From: Methanomassiliicoccaceae archaeon
Lineage (GTDB): Archaea; Thermoplasmatota; Thermoplasmata; Methanomassiliicoccales; Methanomassiliicoccaceae
Reading direction: 5' to 3'
Length of the DNA: 64,000 nt
Assembly: GCA_040776945.1 (NCBI GenBank)
Contig: JAXGZN010000002.1
Coordinates: forward strand, 1-64,000
Position 1 is the stretch's first letter. The number at the start of each line of letters is the position of its first letter. Positions 39,035 to 48,937 of the stretch are shown in pieces. The notes below the pieces were generated by a model. The model was not told the origin of the DNA and made no database searches. It worked only from the letters and a program-made list of their open reading frames with translations. The translations under genes were made by a program, and so were the position numbers.

Positions 39035-39147
39035 ATGGCATGTTAATTGTTAACACGTCTCAGTAAAGATTAATTATGAAGTGTAAATGGTATTTTGAAG
39101 GAAGTTGAAATATGCAATAAATCGCGAAAATAGAACATAAATATGAT

Positions 39148-39198
39148 ACAATGTTGCAATTAACGCTCTTTAGAAAACCAAGGATGCAACAATGTTGC
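39148..39198. promoter_or_regulatory. Operator-like motif ACAATGTTGC x2, including palindrome GCAAC-AAT-GTTGC
   Basis: Copies at 39148-39157 and 39189-39198; reverse complement also at 40878-40887. Confidence 0.65.
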
Positions 39199-39255
39199 GA
39201 TTTCCCGACAACAAGGATTAAATATTGACAAACCAGTTAAGAAAATAGGGATTAT

Positions 39256-40371
39256 ATGGGATACGAGGAGATATTTCCACCATATGACATGGAGTGGCAC
39301 GCCCACTCCACAAGGCGCTTTGCGAATCCCTTCGTCGACAACAAGTATGATCGGGTCGATGTGGACCCGGTCATGCTGTCCCACGCGGCCATTGCGTGCG
39401 GATATACGATCAGGGATTTCTACGAAAAGCCGGAACTAGGCATACACTGTCTGGCCTATATCTACCAGATGTACGACCTGCTGCCGGTTACCCACTGGTT
39501 CTACTCCACCCCATGGCTCAAGGAGCTGGGAATGGAACTGACCCAGAAGGACACCCTCCCGCCAATCGCTGAGACCCCTATCATCAGCGAGCCTGGACAG
39601 GTCGATGACATCGAGGTGCCGGACGAGAAGGCGATCAGGAACGGATACACCTACCCGCAGTACCAGAGGCTGTATACCTATGTGCAGAAGCACCTCCCGC
39701 AGACCTTCGTCCCGATCTCATACGGGTTCGACCCGGTCGGAGAGGCCTCCCACATATGCGGTGTTGAGAACTTCATCATGTGGACCTTCACCGAGCCCGA
39801 CGCGGCCATGAAGCTCCTCAAGAAGTTCACCGACACGTCCATCGAGGGCGCTCTGTGCACTGCCAAGGACTACGGGATGGCCATGCTGGTCCTGGGATCG
39901 GTCCTGGCGAACAACGACATCTTCTCTGACGAGGCTGTCCGTGAGTACTCCGTCAACAACATGCGGTACTATATCGACAAGTGCTTCAGGGGAGGCGCTG
40001 GTCCGCAGATCTTCTACCACCTGTGCGGCAACCACGAGACCGACTACGTGGAGTTCCACAACCTGATATGGTCTCCCTTCACGGTGTTACATATAGGTTA
40101 CAAGGGAAGGGACGTGTTCCCGTCCGACCTACTGGTGAAGGAGTTCGGCAACAAGGCGACCATGATGGGCTCGGTCGACACCAAGCTGCTGATCAACCCC
40201 AACCCCAAGGTCGTGTATGATCAGTCCGCGGAACAGACCAAGGCCGGCCGCGACGCTCCCAGGGGATACATCCTCGGCTGCTCCTGCGAATGCCCCATGT
40301 ACTCGATCCCGGGCAACATCCTGGCAATGACCAGGGCGGCCAAGGACCACGGGTCGTACGGAAAGTGGTGA
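39256..40371 (+). CDS. Methylcobamide:CoM methyltransferase-like protein (MtaA/URO-D family)
   Basis: Zn-binding HLCG plus C-terminal GCSCECP, MGSVD, PGNI; URO-D-fold pattern. Confidence 0.85.
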   Translation: MGYEEIFPPYDMEWHAHSTRRFANPFVDNKYDRVDVDPVMLSHAAIACGYTIRDFYEKPELGIHCLAYIYQMYDLLPVTHWFYSTPWLKELGMELTQKDTLPPIAETPIISEPGQVDDIEVPDEKAIRNGYTYPQYQRLYTYVQKHLPQTFVPISYGFDPVGEASHICGVENFIMWTFTEPDAAMKLLKKFTDTSIEGALCTAKDYGMAMLVLGSVLANNDIFSDEAVREYSVNNMRYYIDKCFRGGAGPQIFYHLCGNHETDYVEFHNLIWSPFTVLHIGYKGRDVFPSDLLVKEFGNKATMMGSVDTKLLINPNPKVVYDQSAEQTKAGRDAPRGYILGCSCECPMYSIPGNILAMTRAAKDHGSYGKW

Positions 40372-46600: not shown

Positions 46601-47428
46601 GCGATGGCCTCGGGAGGACTCGAGGGAAGGGTAGCGAGCGAGGTCTGGCCTGGCCTGGATATCAGCGAGGCCGGCTCGGTGCGGTTCTCCCGGGAGGGCC
46701 AGGAGATGGAGGTAAGGACAATGCCATCGGTCATCAGGGAGGGAACGCGGGACATCGGCATCATGCTGGCCTTCGGCGAGCCGGCGCCGGTCCGGGCCGG
46801 GACTGACCCGAGCACCAACCCCGAGGCCCTCGCCCATGACCTGAACGACTCGCTCCAGGTCATCATGGGCAGCGTGTCCCTGGCCAAGGAGTACGTGATC
46901 CCCGAGGGCCGCATGTACAGCAAGCTAAAGCGGATCGAGAGCGCATCGGTCACTGCCCGCGACCTCGCCGGCAAGCTTATGTCCCCGGCCCGTGAGGTGT
47001 ACCTTCCGGTCCCTGAGGCCCCTTCGGACCTCACCCGTGGCAAGGGCCGCCTGCTGCTAATGGACGATGACGAGAACGTCCTCGAGGCAACGAGCGATCT
47101 CCTTCGCTATTTGGGATACAACGTCGAAGTGGCCAGAGACGGAGAGGAGGCGGTGGCGATGTGCAGGGAGGCCGAGGAGATATGGCAGTCATACGACCTG
47201 GCCCTGGTCGACATCTCGATATCCTCAGGCATGGGAGGGATGGAGGCCAGCAAGAGGCTGGCGGAACTGAACCCCAAGATCGTCCTGATAGTCACCAGCG
47301 GATACCTGTCCGACCCGATAGTCGCGAACCCCTCGGCCAACGGCTTTGCCGCTGCGCTGTCGAAGCCCTACTCCGCCGAGCTACTGTCCAAGACCATCGC
47401 TGAGGCCCTGGCCAACCGACCTGCCTGA
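43682..47428 (+). CDS. MEDS-PAS-long coiled coil-PAS-HisKA-receiver protein lacking HATPase domain
   Basis: DHIALIY...EKGELCLYI...YEAKMN...CQYD MEDS; PAS (SDWAWELD...GVDRDIS); heptad-rich ~550 aa; AHDLN; receiver LLMDD...LVD...TSGY...KPY. Confidence 0.9.
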   Translation: MVDQTAEGPLATPGPERSQVEDHIALIYDEDEERLTTITPLIKVGLEKGELCLYISDEENDIAIVDALKAENIDVDKAVNNGSLILTSKKEMYFKLGRFDPEWTIRVINNIADLARSYGFTAMRVMSEMKWTQDKVSGIERWPEYEAKMNALRPGLSLRIICQYDRRSFVPEAIMAAIQTHPRIVADGQINKNSFYIPSDRLLKGDYAEAELERVMENIRTINSSEAAIQEMTATIESMGRQADTDSAARKGLEMALEESRRRFRELAERTSDWAWELDEHGKYAYSSPRVRDILGLQPEDIIGRTPVDLVTKETAEHITKMMNRILSSRSPISALELEARHKDGHIVYLEMSGTPYFDHDGRFMGFRGVDRDISGRKASKQAIEESRRRTEESLAEIKARDERISVLDTEIAGLKASLSDLDSSIAALQGDMDSKQAELATATEGLSRLNESLQARENELRSLKAAYEEKTSLADSQAEEIAGLKRQLEDRGGELGAIQATLAAAQTMLNGKASELEELTSSFRTQTLELKGAKESLSGVEETLAHREQEQFAMRQHIERLEADLMAAKDSLAARSEELGKAQEELSEARATADQRTVELAAVNDALSRKVKDLAAADELADQRARELASKRESIERLESEVAAISSDLGLRVAELADLRKIIESKEKELETASSDLEQRTNDLRAANELAERRGRETAATRELHAEVAAAHAEAEARRVRSDNELGAARSEIEELKVSLASKAADVDDLTMERDARVEEIARLLHNKSELEAALASKGAELYALEETSHRTASDLKAAQAELSTVRAKLLASEHDLTAVSSRADMLSKVLVLKEEELSSALRSFESTKHAAAELSYKARQLEADQNVSAVIIDGMRSAMADDHARAAKALEENENTMGRLRAAVANKGTIAAERMDQIVALNARVRELEAARDAASFDADRMRKAFMGLPVPAAMVTVDGKVAVANPAMERAMASGGLEGRVASEVWPGLDISEAGSVRFSREGQEMEVRTMPSVIREGTRDIGIMLAFGEPAPVRAGTDPSTNPEALAHDLNDSLQVIMGSVSLAKEYVIPEGRMYSKLKRIESASVTARDLAGKLMSPAREVYLPVPEAPSDLTRGKGRLLLMDDDENVLEATSDLLRYLGYNVEVARDGEEAVAMCREAEEIWQSYDLALVDISISSGMGGMEASKRLAELNPKIVLIVTSGYLSDPIVANPSANGFAAALSKPYSAELLSKTIAEALANRPA

Positions 47429-47464
47429 GCAAAACCTATTAGGGCCCCGGGGCATAATGCCCCG

Positions 47465-48937
47465 ATGGCCCTCCTCGACAAGGTCAAGATCTTCATCGCC
47501 CGCCGGCGGCTCACGTCCCTTAACATAAAAGGTGACGGCAATGCTCTCGAGCAATGGATCCACGGCAAGGTGCGCCAGGAGTTCGAGAGGTCCCGGGAGT
47601 TCAGACAGGCCCTCGGTCGCGAACAGCTCGGGGAGATAACCAGGCATGAGCTCCGAGAGTATCAGCTTCACCGGTTCCGCAGGCAGATGGCCTATGTGAT
47701 GGAGAACTCGTACTACTATCAGAAGAAGTTCAAGGACCTGAACCTGAGGCCGGAGGATATCCGCACCTACGATGACCTGGAGAAGGTGCCGCTTACCGAT
47801 CCCGCGGACCTTGCGGCCGAGCCCTTGACCTTCCTGTGCGTTTCCCAGAGCAAGGTAATGCGGGCCTTCACCACCTCCGGCACCTCGGGGACGAGAAAGC
47901 GGCTATTCTATACCCAGGATGACGTGCTTAACATAGTTGATGCCATTTCCGCGGCGCTTCGCTCTGTCGGCATGTCCGGAGCGGACACACTGCAGATAAT
48001 GTTCCCGGCGGTATCGGCCTGGGACCCCGGGCTCATGCTCGACAGCGCGTGCAAGGTGGCCGGACTGCGCTCAACGGTCTGCAGCTCGGTGGACGTGGAC
48101 GAGCAGATCAGAACGATGATGGAGAAGGACACCAAGGTAATGATCGGCCTGACCTCGTTCCTTTACAGGATCACCGTTCTGGCCCGGGACCGGTACGATC
48201 TTCGTTCTCTGGGAATGAAGGCCATCATATGCTCCGCGGAGCCCCTGCCGGAGGCGATGCGCCGCGAGATGCGCTCAGCGTGGGGCTGCAAGATCCTCAG
48301 CCAGTATGGGATGACCGAGATGGGACTGGCCACGGCGATCGAGTGCGAGGCCGCGGACGGACTGCACATGGACGAGGCCGATTATCTGGCGGAAGTGATC
48401 GACCCGGAGACCGGAAAGCACATGCCTGACAGAACGCCGGGGGAGCTAATATTCACGTCTCTGGCGATGCAGGGCACACCCCTTCTGAGATACCGTACAC
48501 GGGACCTCTCCTCCCTCATCGAACCACCATGCCAATGCGACTTCGTCACCATAGGCAAGATGGGGAAGGTGCAGGGGAGGATGGACGCGCAGACCAAGAT
48601 AGGCTATGGGCAGAAGATATATCCCGTTCTTTTCGATGAGGCGCTCCTGTCGATACCGGGCGTGCTGGGCTACCGCCTTGTCCTAGAGCGCGAAGGCTAC
48701 CGCGACAAACTGACCTTCCAGGTGGAGCTCAAAGGCGACCCGGCGGGGAAGGCGGAGATGATCAGGGAGGCGATAATGCAGCTTGACGAGATCAAGGAGC
48801 CGCTGGAGAACGACCTGATATCCGAGCCTGAGATAGAGATCGTAAAGGCCGGCAGCGTCGCCTTTGCGCCGAAGAGCAAGGTGATCGAGGACCGGCGCAA
48901 GAACTACGAGGGAACGGAAAGGCCGAAGGCACCATGA
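47465..48937 (+). CDS. PaaK-like AMP-dependent CoA ligase (DVU_1553-like)
   Basis: TTSGTSGTRKRLFYT..D, YGMTEMGL..AIEC, PLLRYRTRD, GR. Confidence 0.88.
   Translation: MALLDKVKIFIARRRLTSLNIKGDGNALEQWIHGKVRQEFERSREFRQALGREQLGEITRHELREYQLHRFRRQMAYVMENSYYYQKKFKDLNLRPEDIRTYDDLEKVPLTDPADLAAEPLTFLCVSQSKVMRAFTTSGTSGTRKRLFYTQDDVLNIVDAISAALRSVGMSGADTLQIMFPAVSAWDPGLMLDSACKVAGLRSTVCSSVDVDEQIRTMMEKDTKVMIGLTSFLYRITVLARDRYDLRSLGMKAIICSAEPLPEAMRREMRSAWGCKILSQYGMTEMGLATAIECEAADGLHMDEADYLAEVIDPETGKHMPDRTPGELIFTSLAMQGTPLLRYRTRDLSSLIEPPCQCDFVTIGKMGKVQGRMDAQTKIGYGQKIYPVLFDEALLSIPGVLGYRLVLEREGYRDKLTFQVELKGDPAGKAEMIREAIMQLDEIKEPLENDLISEPEIEIVKAGSVAFAPKSKVIEDRRKNYEGTERPKAP

Follow-up and report, generated by a model that had tools for sequence, protein, structure and literature searches.

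The locus studied here raises the question of whether a methyltransferase, a small adaptor, a radical SAM enzyme, a ligase and a sensor-like protein, encoded close together in a Methanomassiliicoccaceae archaeon, belong to one system, and what chemistry such a system may serve. The window, that is, the whole stretch of DNA analysed, comprises 64,000 nucleotides (positions 1-64,000, forward strand, of contig JAXGZN010000002.1, assembly GCA_040776945.1). With a probability of about 0.6, we consider the locus to be the archaeal form of the uncharacterised TrsS system, in which six genes make up a single functional unit under its own regulation, together with a dedicated Lrp/AsnC regulator. We know of no substrate, product or activity for any TrsS. 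In PMC13188914 the family itself is credited to Haft & Tolstoy 2025.

Gene content and conservation of the cassette

All the genes named in an earlier interpretation from the letters alone (the sequence-only reading) lie where it had placed them, and their clustering within about 10 kb is far beyond chance, being found in 40 loci, one per genome, from 40 genomes in 7 families of the Methanomassiliicoccales. Synteny holds across the whole order; the concern voiced in that reading, that the genes might not be syntenic in relatives, therefore falls away. The core consists of six genes, encoding a URO-D-like methyltransferase (38 of the 40 loci), an AYSHR/DVU_1557 fused adaptor (39/40), TrsS, a 101-aa protein with seven cysteines that had previously gone unlisted (40/40), a DUF169 protein (30/40) and a ligase (39/40, the single miss falling at a contig end). 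DUF169 is not essential, since it is absent in 10 of the 40 loci. One genome (L073) has TrsS and the ligase, with neither a URO-D nor an adaptor gene close by. Neither a corrinoid protein nor MT1 is encoded within the cassette, and no selenocysteine is found in it.

The cassette is also lost as a block: three genomes of the same genus retain the flanks and the MEDS gene discussed below and lack all seven genes. A metallo-beta-lactamase fold protein with two rhodanese domains (37670–39034, plus strand; Pfam and NCBIfam) is gone from the syntenic locus of the three cassette-less genomes; its gene lies within 10 kb of TrsS in 21/40 order loci, and we regard it as a possible accessory outside the core. 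A homologue of the 101-aa protein is still present beside PcrB in two cassette-less genomes.

The encoded proteins

The methyltransferase (39256–40371, plus strand, 371 aa; PF01208, 92 bits) had been described as MtaA-like, which stands at the level of the family: its sole relative in the PDB is MtaA (4AY7; E = 0.002 with the single sequence, 2.3e-6 with a profile), and the zinc ligands H255, C257 and C344 (His-x-Cys...Cys) are unchanged across 27 orthologues. The description does not extend to membership of the curated families, as MtaA and CmuA models fall far below cut-off (34–60 bits for MtaA models against cut-offs of 235–400). From these comparisons, the protein is predicted to be a divergent zinc-site relative of MtaA. 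With the MtaA-type methylcobamide:CoM methyltransferases it shares the URO-D TIM barrel, the zinc site and an occurrence in methylotrophic methanogens, but it is about 30 residues longer and always accompanied by the adaptor.

The adaptor gene (40373–40828, plus strand, 151 aa) starts one base past the methyltransferase stop codon. Profile matches relate its residues 3–77 to the C-terminal tail of NF045663 and residues 91–149 to DUF7479/DVU_1557 (NF045645, 40.2 bits, cut-off 60), and the AYSHRM motif is found in it. Across 27 aligned orthologues the best-conserved stretch is the C-terminal tail, EEYLA..AEGLFEKK(R/K)A, a pattern common to bacterial DVU_1557, and the alignment holds no invariant cysteine, Gly-Gly tail or other known acceptor; both CxxC pairs are missing in 5/27 sequences and the first pair alone in one further. 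In all four metatranscriptome runs examined, a single contig spans methyltransferase and adaptor with a word depth of 266–471 against at most 48 in adjoining contigs, which is a hint only because the data are contigs, whose depth cannot rank expression.

The radical SAM enzyme (40935–42329, plus strand) probably starts at the ATG at 40953; RNA contigs from three runs begin nearby, at 40951–40954, again only as a hint. It had been likened to TrsS and does exceed the curated cut-off of that family (NF045646, 536 bits against 490). With Tes/GDGT-MAS (7TOL; NF045702) it has in common an N-terminal zinc ribbon, the radical SAM core and the auxiliary-cluster cysteines, aligning to 7TOL with an E value of 1e-88 over residues 15–322, and its cluster cysteines are unchanged across 31 sequences. 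It differs in a shorter, divergent middle and C-terminal part and reaches 387 bits on the Tes model, whose cut-off is 450. Since the true Tes of the genome is encoded elsewhere (656 bits on that model), the TrsS copy is not the lipid synthase. A second Tes homologue, that of M. acetivorans, made no GDGT according to an excerpt of PMC8941075.

The ligase (47465–48937, plus strand, 490 aa) is a PaaK-like adenylate-forming enzyme of the DVU_1553 type (NF045666, 280.9 bits, cut-off 300; 197–220 bits on PaaK models). The likening of this enzyme and of the CxxC protein to DVU_1553 and DVU_1557 was borne out, these being the best matches, both just under cut-off. Proteins joining TrsS and AMP-ligase exist (P0021, P0037), and further TrsS fusions involve a class I methyltransferase, a MobA-like NTP transferase and DUF5714. 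On the opposite strand lie the genes of the two remaining core proteins. The 101-aa protein (42385–42690, minus strand) has seven invariant cysteines in the alignment and no Pfam family above cut-off, and its gene stands immediately upstream of TrsS in Nitrososphaeria loci. The DUF169 protein (42762–43562, minus strand, 266 aa; PF02596, 137 bits) has four invariant cysteines, C59, C83, C185 and C203.

Occurrence in other archaea and in bacteria

Outside the order, the core set recurs with altered gene order in Nitrososphaeria, Methanomethylicia and Methanolobus. Three Nitrososphaeria MAG loci (L103, L104 and L109) carry all six genes, and another (L105) has four, with ligase and DUF169 not detected; four genes each are found in Methanomethylicia and in Methanolobus, and the URO-D-like orthologue is present in 11/61 genomes of the Methanolobus family. 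The TrsS proteins of these cassettes form one clade (SH-like support 98), with bacterial TrsS separate. Among five holders checked outside the order, MtaB (methanol methyltransferase) was found in three and McrA in one; McrA was not found in 3/4 Nitrososphaeria holders nor in the Methanomethylicia holder, and one outside holder (G122) has neither McrA nor MtaB. The association with methanogenesis thus has gaps.

The proposed resemblance to the Desulfovibrio DVU_155x/TrsS set holds. Bacterial loci carry corresponding genes: an HdrC/D-like CCG protein, an AYSHR tail protein, DVU_1557, the ArsM-like methyltransferase DVU_1556, TrsS and ligase (families NF045646 for TrsS, NF045666 for the DVU_1553 ligase, NF045645 for DVU_1557, NF045667 for the DVU_1556 methyltransferase and NF045663 for the oxidoreductase). 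As there, the archaeal cassette combines a TrsS over cut-off with a ligase, a DVU_1557-type protein and a methyltransferase beside the adaptor. Unlike there, a corrinoid-type zinc URO-D enzyme occupies the place of the SAM methyltransferase DVU_1556, and the AYSHR tail and DVU_1557, separate proteins in bacteria, form a single one. The archaeal side adds DUF169, the seven-cysteine protein and an Lrp regulator whose operator is conserved; no URO-D, DUF169 or 101-aa protein was found in the bacterial loci. The archaeal genome in turn has no HdrC/D-like oxidoreductase, MobA-like transferase or molybdenum aldehyde oxidoreductase. In agreement with the sequence-only reading, which had noted no molybdenum enzyme here, PF02738 (the xanthine-oxidase type) gave 0 matches in the whole 99.8%-complete genome. 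Bacterial neighbours include acyl-CoA dehydratase/reductase-type genes and an MFS carboxylate transporter.

Regulation of the cassette

The gene between those for DUF169 and the ligase in the window encodes a 1262-aa protein with MEDS, PAS, coiled-coil and receiver regions (43640–47428, plus strand; Pfam), in which no HisKA or HATPase was found. Its position is what speaks for the earlier proposal that it is the sensor of the locus, a proposal we now find barely credible. The gene occurs in 12/40 order loci, all within one family, and no operator is present at its promoter. Moreover, it persists in the three congeneric genomes from which the cassette has been lost, and because it is retained there it is not the cassette's sensor. 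The MEDS gene is a family-specific insertion and a bystander of the cassette rather than part of the module.

The two promoters that had been noted to share a motif do so, with ATGCAACAATGTTGCG at 39184–39199 and ATGCAACATTGTGGCG at 40876–40891. The region upstream of the URO-D-like gene (39143–39199) contains the palindrome TGCAACAATGTTGC at 39185–39198 and a degenerate copy at 39143–39158, and a second copy found by motif match, TGCAACATTGTGGC, lies upstream of TrsS at 40877–40890. In the window, four matches with up to 3 mismatches compare with 1.06 expected, and 4/100 shuffles reach four, a signal that is weak alone. Genome-wide, the 14-mer with at most 1 mismatch gives 5 sites against 0 for a reversed control, and across the order 34/38 loci have the motif 20–200 nt ahead of the URO-D-like gene (reversed control, 0/38). 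It was not found before TrsS elsewhere in the order when up to 2 mismatches were allowed, nor in cassettes of other archaeal lineages (0/6). The shared motif is predicted to be a conserved palindromic operator, which is new here.

The same palindrome stands 11–25 nt before the ATG of an Lrp/AsnC regulator in the same genome, and 10–24 nt before it in a second genome (G045). This regulator is encoded 450 kb from the cassette, adjoining the mcr operon and surrounded by RamA, MtaA-type genes, a corrinoid protein and mcr. Across 121 genomes, regulator and TrsS are both present in 69 and both absent in 43, while TrsS occurs alone in 5 and the regulator alone in 4 (112/121 concordant, 9/121 discordant); eight of the nine discordant genomes are 66–91% complete and the ninth (G110) 94%. 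In three cassette-less genomes the regulator gene is cleanly absent between RamA and the next gene, and in three others (G048, G078 and G084) it lies 2.5–3.7 kb from TrsS. Judged by this shared operator and co-occurrence, the predicted regulator of the cassette is the unlinked Lrp/AsnC protein, not MEDS. It resembles archaeal Lrp/AsnC (feast/famine) regulators in combining HTH_24 with an AsnC ligand-binding domain and in a palindromic operator, roughly 15 bp long, that also has a site at its own promoter; it departs from them in a tiny regulon, a single accessory cassette, and in being lost along with that cassette despite being unlinked.

Proposed mechanism and alternatives

For the TrsS system we propose a mechanism of five steps which, taken as a whole, is tentative, and which we would sooner expect to fail at some step than to hold throughout. 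The ligase would turn a small carboxylic acid into an acyl-AMP or acyl-CoA. TrsS would then take hydrogen off an unactivated carbon, and the radical would be caught on an auxiliary-cluster sulfur, as in Tes, so that a C-S or C-C bond is formed; this chemistry is our best guess by extrapolation from Tes, for which an excerpt of PMC13459092 describes a substrate-sulfur adduct on the auxiliary cluster. The zinc methyltransferase would pass a methyl group from a methyl-corrinoid (SAM in bacteria) to the thiol product, a thiol acceptor being what the enzyme families suggest. The adaptor would tether the methyltransferase, the seven-cysteine protein and DUF169 may be redox or thioester helpers, and an amino-acid-like ligand would cause the regulator to turn on both promoters. 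MiaB/RimO methylthiotransferases, radical SAM enzymes with an auxiliary cluster, build a C-S bond on an unactivated carbon before the sulfur receives its methyl group. The cassette would be comparable to these enzymes only in how its proposed chemistry works: homology is confined to the radical SAM core, methyl transfer would fall to another enzyme, and the reaction would act on an acid activated by the ligase.

The methyltransferase and adaptor might instead form the enzyme that passes methyl groups of a novel substrate, for example a methyl thioether bearing a carboxylate or some other methylated acid, into methanogenesis, with ligase, TrsS, DUF169 and the seven-cysteine protein preparing or disposing of the carbon skeleton or maturing the enzyme. 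Thioether demethylation is known within the MtaA family, the holders are methyl-dependent methanogens or MtaB carriers, part of the Methanolobus family has the URO-D-like orthologue, and the regulator's genomic neighbourhood and the joint RNA contig point the same way. Yet the bacterial counterpart is a SAM-dependent methyltransferase, able only to add methyl groups, the cassette has no MT1 or corrinoid protein of its own, McrA was not found in most outside holders as described, and contig depth does not rank expression; we consider this route doubtful. A role for TrsS and ligase in post-translationally modifying the adaptor tail or the methyltransferase, or in building a prosthetic group on it, with the methyltransferase-adaptor pair as the working enzyme, appears improbable. 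Proteins are common substrates of radical SAM enzymes, and both the conserved adaptor tail and the adjacency and shared RNA contig of the pair would suit it, but the genes neighbouring the bacterial loci, like the PaaK-type ligase, indicate a small acid, and the adaptor offers no recognisable acceptor.

Least expected of these uses is the modification of archaeal membrane lipids by TrsS and its partners, such as glycerol-backbone methylation leading to the butanetriol and pentanetriol tetraethers of Methanomassiliicoccus, which we consider very improbable. TrsS is indeed the closest paralogue of Tes, and in Methanomassiliicoccales the cassette abuts genes for PcrB (GGGP synthase, 33/40 loci) and UbiA prenyltransferase (30/40). 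M. luminyensis produces such lipids according to an excerpt of PMC10673518, the part of 10.1101/2025.10.20.683597 available names no enzyme for these tetraethers, and the words butanetriol and BDGT are absent from the 2026 review PMC13459092. However, this adjacency is limited to the order, with neither gene near the Nitrososphaeria, Methanomethylicia or Methanolobus cassettes, and the same core occurs in bacteria, which have no archaeal lipids. The carboxylic-acid ligase has no obvious lipid substrate. In addition, the backbone methyl is reportedly methionine-derived, a result said to come from Coffinet 2022, and a SAM route would need no corrinoid-type methyltransferase.

The data fit a TrsS module repurposed in archaea for some methylated substrate or cofactor, as the sequence-only reading had suggested. 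Methyl-consuming methanogens hold, lose and control this cassette as a single unit.

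Gene content of the locus

An ORF listing and HMM scans confirmed every gene that the sequence-only reading had assigned to this methyl-compound locus (an MtaA-like methyltransferase, an AYSHRM/Zn-finger protein, a TrsS/Tes-like radical SAM protein, DUF169, MEDS and a CoA ligase) and added a small protein absent from its list. The URO-D-family methyltransferase (39256-40371, + strand) finds its best named matches among MtaA-type models at 34-60 bits, under cut-offs of 235-400; the MtaA/CmuA models TIGR01463 and NF040654 give 43.7 and 33.8 bits, not reaching 235 and 400. Its HLCGN motif aligns to HICGN of 4AY7, the His-x-Cys ... 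Cys zinc site is present, and the ligands H255, C257 and C344 are invariant across 27 orthologues. The adaptor (40373-40828, +) starts 1 base past the methyltransferase stop codon. By HMM, its first half resembles the C-terminal 80 residues of the NF045663 oxidoreductase and its second half is the DVU_1557-type small protein (Pfam DUF7479, 60.3 bits, cut-off 27; NF045645, 40.2 bits, cut-off 60). Adaptor cysteines vary among aligned orthologues, and the adaptor structure model (pLDDT 86) showed no fold match in the PDB (best E 0.13). When a complex of TrsS, methyltransferase and adaptor was predicted, the score was almost matched by a control with TrsS replaced, so the prediction counts neither for nor against binding.

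The radical SAM gene (40935-42329, +) is followed by the added gene, encoding a 101-residue protein with seven invariant cysteines (42385-42690, -), by DUF169 (42762-43562, -, identified by HMM scan) and, after the MEDS gene, by a PaaK-like ligase (47465-48937, +) whose best model, NF045666 of the DVU_1553 family, gives 280.9 bits against a cut-off of 300. The DUF169 structure model (pLDDT 89.8) had no Foldseek match in the PDB at E <=0.001; in VIA-align the top rows were almost all thiolase/ketosynthase folds, at a best Z of 5.0, below the trustworthy level. Profile comparison of the 101-residue protein with the adaptor and with P0005 (a TrsS-family protein bearing DUF5714), and of DUF169 with P0005, returned probabilities of only 0.2-7%, and in the Atlas the 101-residue protein was only weakly linked with a DUF7479 cluster (0.91, 100 shared features). 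Homologues of this protein at 38-41% identity adjoin PcrB in two genomes of family f7 that carry no cassette (L084 10296-10592; L085 9193-9492), so it may have a separate role of its own.

TrsS is a close relative of Tes

TrsS, whose closest relative is the lipid-welding enzyme of archaeal membranes, is a large radical SAM family of anaerobic bacteria and archaea; to our knowledge, no reaction is known for any member. The protein of the window matches model NF045646 over positions 3-441 with 536 bits, above the cut-off of 490, as do its counterparts in Nitrososphaeria (547) and Methanomethylicia (520), while that of Methanolobus (473) falls below it. Against the Tes model NF045702 it scores 387.3 bits, under the cut-off of 450, and the true Tes of the genome lies elsewhere (G000:C2:995177-996598, 656 bits to the same model). 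Pfam detects Radical_SAM and Zn_ribbon_HMPTM, and the motifs comprise the radical SAM CX3CX2C, a second CX3CX2C, an N-terminal zinc ribbon and a C-terminal CC...C. In an alignment of 31 archaeal and bacterial sequences, C19, C22, C43, C84, C88, C91, C109, C113, C116, C236, C328, C422, C423 and C437 are all invariant. Compared with Tes, TrsS retains all the cluster cysteines and diverges past residue 322. Selenocysteine forms belong to the family according to the name of NF045646 and to table rows of PMC13188914, and a search for internal TGA codons in the fetched bacterial copies found none. Relatives at 88-89% identity on named contigs come from Methanomassiliicoccus MAGs. Translation probably starts at ATG 40953 rather than GTG 40935, the orthologue consensus opening with M.E.IGE.

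Bacterial counterparts

We compared the locus with those of Dehalococcoidia, Deltaproteobacteria and Syntrophales. The bacterial order begins with an HdrC/D-like dicluster-plus-CCG protein, or with the full NF045663 oxidoreductase, and continues with a ~90-residue protein ending in TAYSHR, a ~62-residue CxxC...CxxC protein of the DVU_1557 type, the DVU_1556 ArsM-like SAM methyltransferase, one or two TrsS genes and finally the ligase, which adjoins TrsS in all bacterial loci where contig extent allowed. Genes of the acyl-CoA dehydratase/reductase type and a carboxylate-type MFS transporter are frequently near. On this comparison, the archaeal adaptor is the ~90- and ~62-residue bacterial proteins fused into one. 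Neither the DVU_1556 methyltransferase nor the full NF045663 oxidoreductase, both present in the bacterial loci, was found in the window: a corrinoid-type zinc methyltransferase occupies the place of the SAM enzyme, and just the 80-residue tail of the oxidoreductase remains, fused into the adaptor. The sequence-only reading placed the bacterial DVU_1551-1558 set beside a molybdenum aldehyde oxidoreductase and noted no Mo enzyme here; for enzymes of the xanthine-oxidase type this held across the whole genome, with 0 matches to PF02738 against matches in 6 of 14 control genomes.

Overlong TrsS proteins, ten of which were scanned from the best 150 of 1.8 billion representatives, carry an AMP-ligase (2), a class I methyltransferase (3), DUF5714 (2) or a MobA-like NTP transferase (3, one also bearing an HD domain). 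These fusions make ligase action and methyl transfer integral parts of TrsS systems generally. Loci of Dehalococcoidia and Chloroflexota (L110, L111, L114, L115 and L116) have two tandem TrsS genes, and in L111 both scored copies exceed the cut-off (585 and 563 bits).

Conservation and spread of the cassette

TrsS scored above the cut-off in 67 of the 121 genomes sampled from Methanomassiliicoccales, and we excised 20 kb around it from 40 genomes in seven families. The cassette genes are syntenic in these relatives: the URO-D-like gene is present in 38/40 loci, the adaptor in 39/40, the 101-residue protein in 40/40, the ligase next to TrsS in 39/40 (the one miss being a contig end) and DUF169 in 30/40. 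Genes of the upstream flank, on the other hand, were present in 6-9 of the 40. One URO-D-like miss is a contig end and the other is locus L073 (genome G119), complete over 20 kb, where TrsS, the 101-residue protein, the ligase, PcrB and UbiA are present without the URO-D-like gene and adaptor, both of which two genomes of the same genus carry. In genus g2, two tandem URO-D-like genes, at 68-78% identity to that of the window, lie upstream of the adaptor (L040 6353-8875; L042 6348-8877).

In three TrsS-less genomes of the window's genus the flanks (POR, flavin reductase, ..., PcrB, UbiA, M50) and the MEDS gene remain, whereas the rhodanese protein, methyltransferase, adaptor, TrsS, 101-residue protein, DUF169 and ligase are all missing. 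This bears on the MEDS protein (43640-47428, +), which had been proposed as the sensor of the cassette. It combines a MEDS domain (125.6 bits), PAS, a long coiled coil and a receiver without a kinase core: neither HisKA nor HATPase came up, even when the C-terminal 223 residues were scanned with E relaxed to 1. The sensor role was not borne out: the gene, placed between DUF169 and the ligase gene, occurs in 12/40 loci, all from the window's family, and persists after cassette loss. The MEDS protein is a bystander to the cassette. Diverged direct repeats spaced 252 nt, or 84 codons, occur within its coiled-coil part (44790-46210).

Outside the order, Nitrososphaeria MAG loci L103, L104 and L109 hold all six genes in other gene orders, and L105 holds four, ligase and DUF169 not being detected. 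Four cassette genes, again in other orders, occur in a Methanomethylicia MAG and four in Methanolobus sp. ZRKC3, in whose family 11 of 61 genomes carry a methyltransferase orthologue. In the Methanomethylicia locus (L107 5040-6149) a CobW/HypB-type metallochaperone GTPase gene lies between those of the 101-residue protein and TrsS. A FastTree phylogeny of 122 family members, with support that is local only and many rows of odd composition, placed these archaeal TrsS proteins in one clade (SH-like 98) separate from the fetched bacterial copies, with the Methanomassiliicoccales sequences monophyletic inside it (support 99). We dropped the idea that all holders are methanogens, as McrA was matched in just 1/5 holders outside Methanomassiliicoccales; with MAGs that may be incomplete, a non-match shows no absence.

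An operator and an unlinked regulator

The motif that the sequence-only reading had seen in two promoters is the palindrome TGCAACA(A/T)TGT(T/G)GC, found in front of both the methyltransferase gene and TrsS, ~30-37 nt upstream of a TATA-like box in each case. Allowing <=1 mismatch, the motif has 5 sites in the 2.17-Mb genome and its reversed control has 0. In 34/38 loci of the order a copy precedes the methyltransferase gene by 20-200 nt (control 0/38), as it does in 9/19 of another set of named loci that partly overlaps the first (control 1/19); in cassettes of other archaeal lineages none was found (0/6).

The ATG of an Lrp/AsnC gene (C2:497657-498121; HTH_24 53 bits, AsnC_trans_reg 44 bits) follows one of the five sites by 11-25 nt, an arrangement shared by genome G045. 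A RamA-like corrinoid activase and a 277-residue gene flank this regulator gene, the latter followed by YcaO-TfuA-McrB...McrA, and two MtaA-type genes and a corrinoid protein are immediately upstream. The whole region (G000:C2:488000-507900, L137) is a methanogenesis supercluster from corrinoid protein to McrA, with gene order conserved across the order. YcaO matches beside mcr in cassette-less loci L147 (G021) and L149 (G029) were reported with one in-frame TGA.

We compared the occurrence of regulator and TrsS by hand in the same 121 genomes, 73 of which carry the regulator. Both are present in 69 (63 with full TrsS and 6 with probable TrsS fragments at contig ends), neither in 43, TrsS without regulator in 5 and regulator without TrsS in 4; kin are not independent, but the comparison includes four or more separate contrasts. 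Of the nine discordant genomes, eight are 66-91% complete and the ninth, G110, is 94% complete. Within genera the match is exact (g1, 7 both and 4 neither; g3, 4 and 2; g13, 2 and 1), and in family f7 the regulator is found in 5/5 holders and 0/35 non-holders. Where the cassette is missing in the window's genus (three genomes), the 277-residue gene follows RamA by 22-55 nt and the regulator is cleanly absent. In G048, G078 and G084 the regulator gene and TrsS are 2.5-3.7 kb apart.

Among the remaining sites, a palindromic copy with a single mismatch (G000:C2:342286-342300; L134 1987-2000) falls within another MtaA-type URO-D gene, in its 5' part; that gene adjoins a histidine kinase. Another site is near a transposase gene, and both are possibly due to chance. 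Extra single sites occur in G024, G045, G065 and G006; genome G024 has a copy 138 nt upstream of an MtaA-type gene in the mcr supercluster.

Six metatranscriptome runs hold 61-90% of the words of the stretch. In each of four runs examined, one contig spans methyltransferase and adaptor (39257-40779, 39264-40830 and 39333-40852; that of run X18 extends into TrsS, to 41769), with a word depth of 266-471 against <=48 for contigs of neighbouring genes. Contigs with TrsS in three runs start at 40951-40954, beside ATG 40953. Since these data are contigs, in which uncovered stretches carry no meaning, what they establish is the presence of the region in the RNA libraries at very uneven depth, and not transcript ends or levels.

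Proposed function

We consider it probable (about 0.6) that the cassette is one unit with its regulon. As a tentative proposal for its chemistry, the ligase would activate an acid, TrsS would form a C-S (or C-C) bond by a radical route and the methyltransferase would methylate the thiol; in methylotrophic methanogens the methyl group would come from methyl-corrinoid in place of SAM. We favour this sequence of steps on the basis of the Tes mechanism, the TrsS cysteines and the constraints set by the partner enzymes. According to PMC13459092, Tes takes H from an inert methyl group and holds the resulting radical on a sulfur of the auxiliary cluster ahead of C-C coupling. The ligase class is adenylate-forming, of the aryl- or alkyl-acetate type, and both versions of the methyltransferase (Zn-thiolate MT2 type and ArsM type) alkylate soft nucleophiles. 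Bacterial sets contain heterodisulfide-reductase-like CCG proteins. Weak leads agree: the rhodanese protein is lost together with the cassette, DUF169 turns up in tables, next to a sulfite exporter and on a list of selenium co-occurrence, and the fold signal of DUF169 is thiolase-like (Z 5).

A catabolic role is doubtful, and protein maturation is improbable. Lipid modification, including a butanetriol-lipid idea, draws on the core archaeal lipid genes PcrB (GGGP synthase, 49549-50340, -) and UbiA (prenyltransferase, 50280-51098, -), which come directly after the ligase gene. Their adjacency is real, occurring in 33/40 and 30/40 loci of the order, but it is limited to this order and missing from the other cassette-bearing lineages, and we judge this role very improbable. 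The favoured thiol chemistry can be extended into a fuller and rather unlikely scenario, a split, corrinoid-fed methylthiolation: an undescribed, Lrp-switched pathway, spreading by gene transfer between methyl-dependent methanogens from three or more phyla, in which a Tes-like radical SAM enzyme would make a C-S bond on a ligase-activated acid and a B12-type methyltransferase, not SAM, would then methylate the sulfur.

Significance

The TrsS family and its bacterial neighbourhood are already catalogued. In the literature that could be searched, no paper on the archaeal cassette and none on the DVU locus tags was found, and DUF169/COG2043 had only two passing table mentions. What this analysis adds is that the cassette spans phyla as a single clade, that one type of methyltransferase has replaced another in it, that the MEDS protein falls outside it, and that its operator is paired with an unlinked regulator which co-varies with it. 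For annotation, a second Tes homologue is not a sign of tetraether chemistry, and MEDS proteins should not be taken by default as sensors of the surrounding genes.

With few genes, a defined on/off regulator, a readable operator and natural cassette-plus and cassette-minus species in one genus, the archaeal cassette is the cleanest handle on TrsS so far, and the family of its methyltransferase predicts what sort of acceptor is used, namely a metal-activated thiol. If the methyl group comes from the methyl-corrinoid pool, the cassette would join methanogenic methyl metabolism to new radical chemistry. Run in reverse, a methylthiolation pathway would be a new methyl-thioether entry into methanogenesis, and a catabolic route would add a substrate class for the methanogens of guts and digesters.
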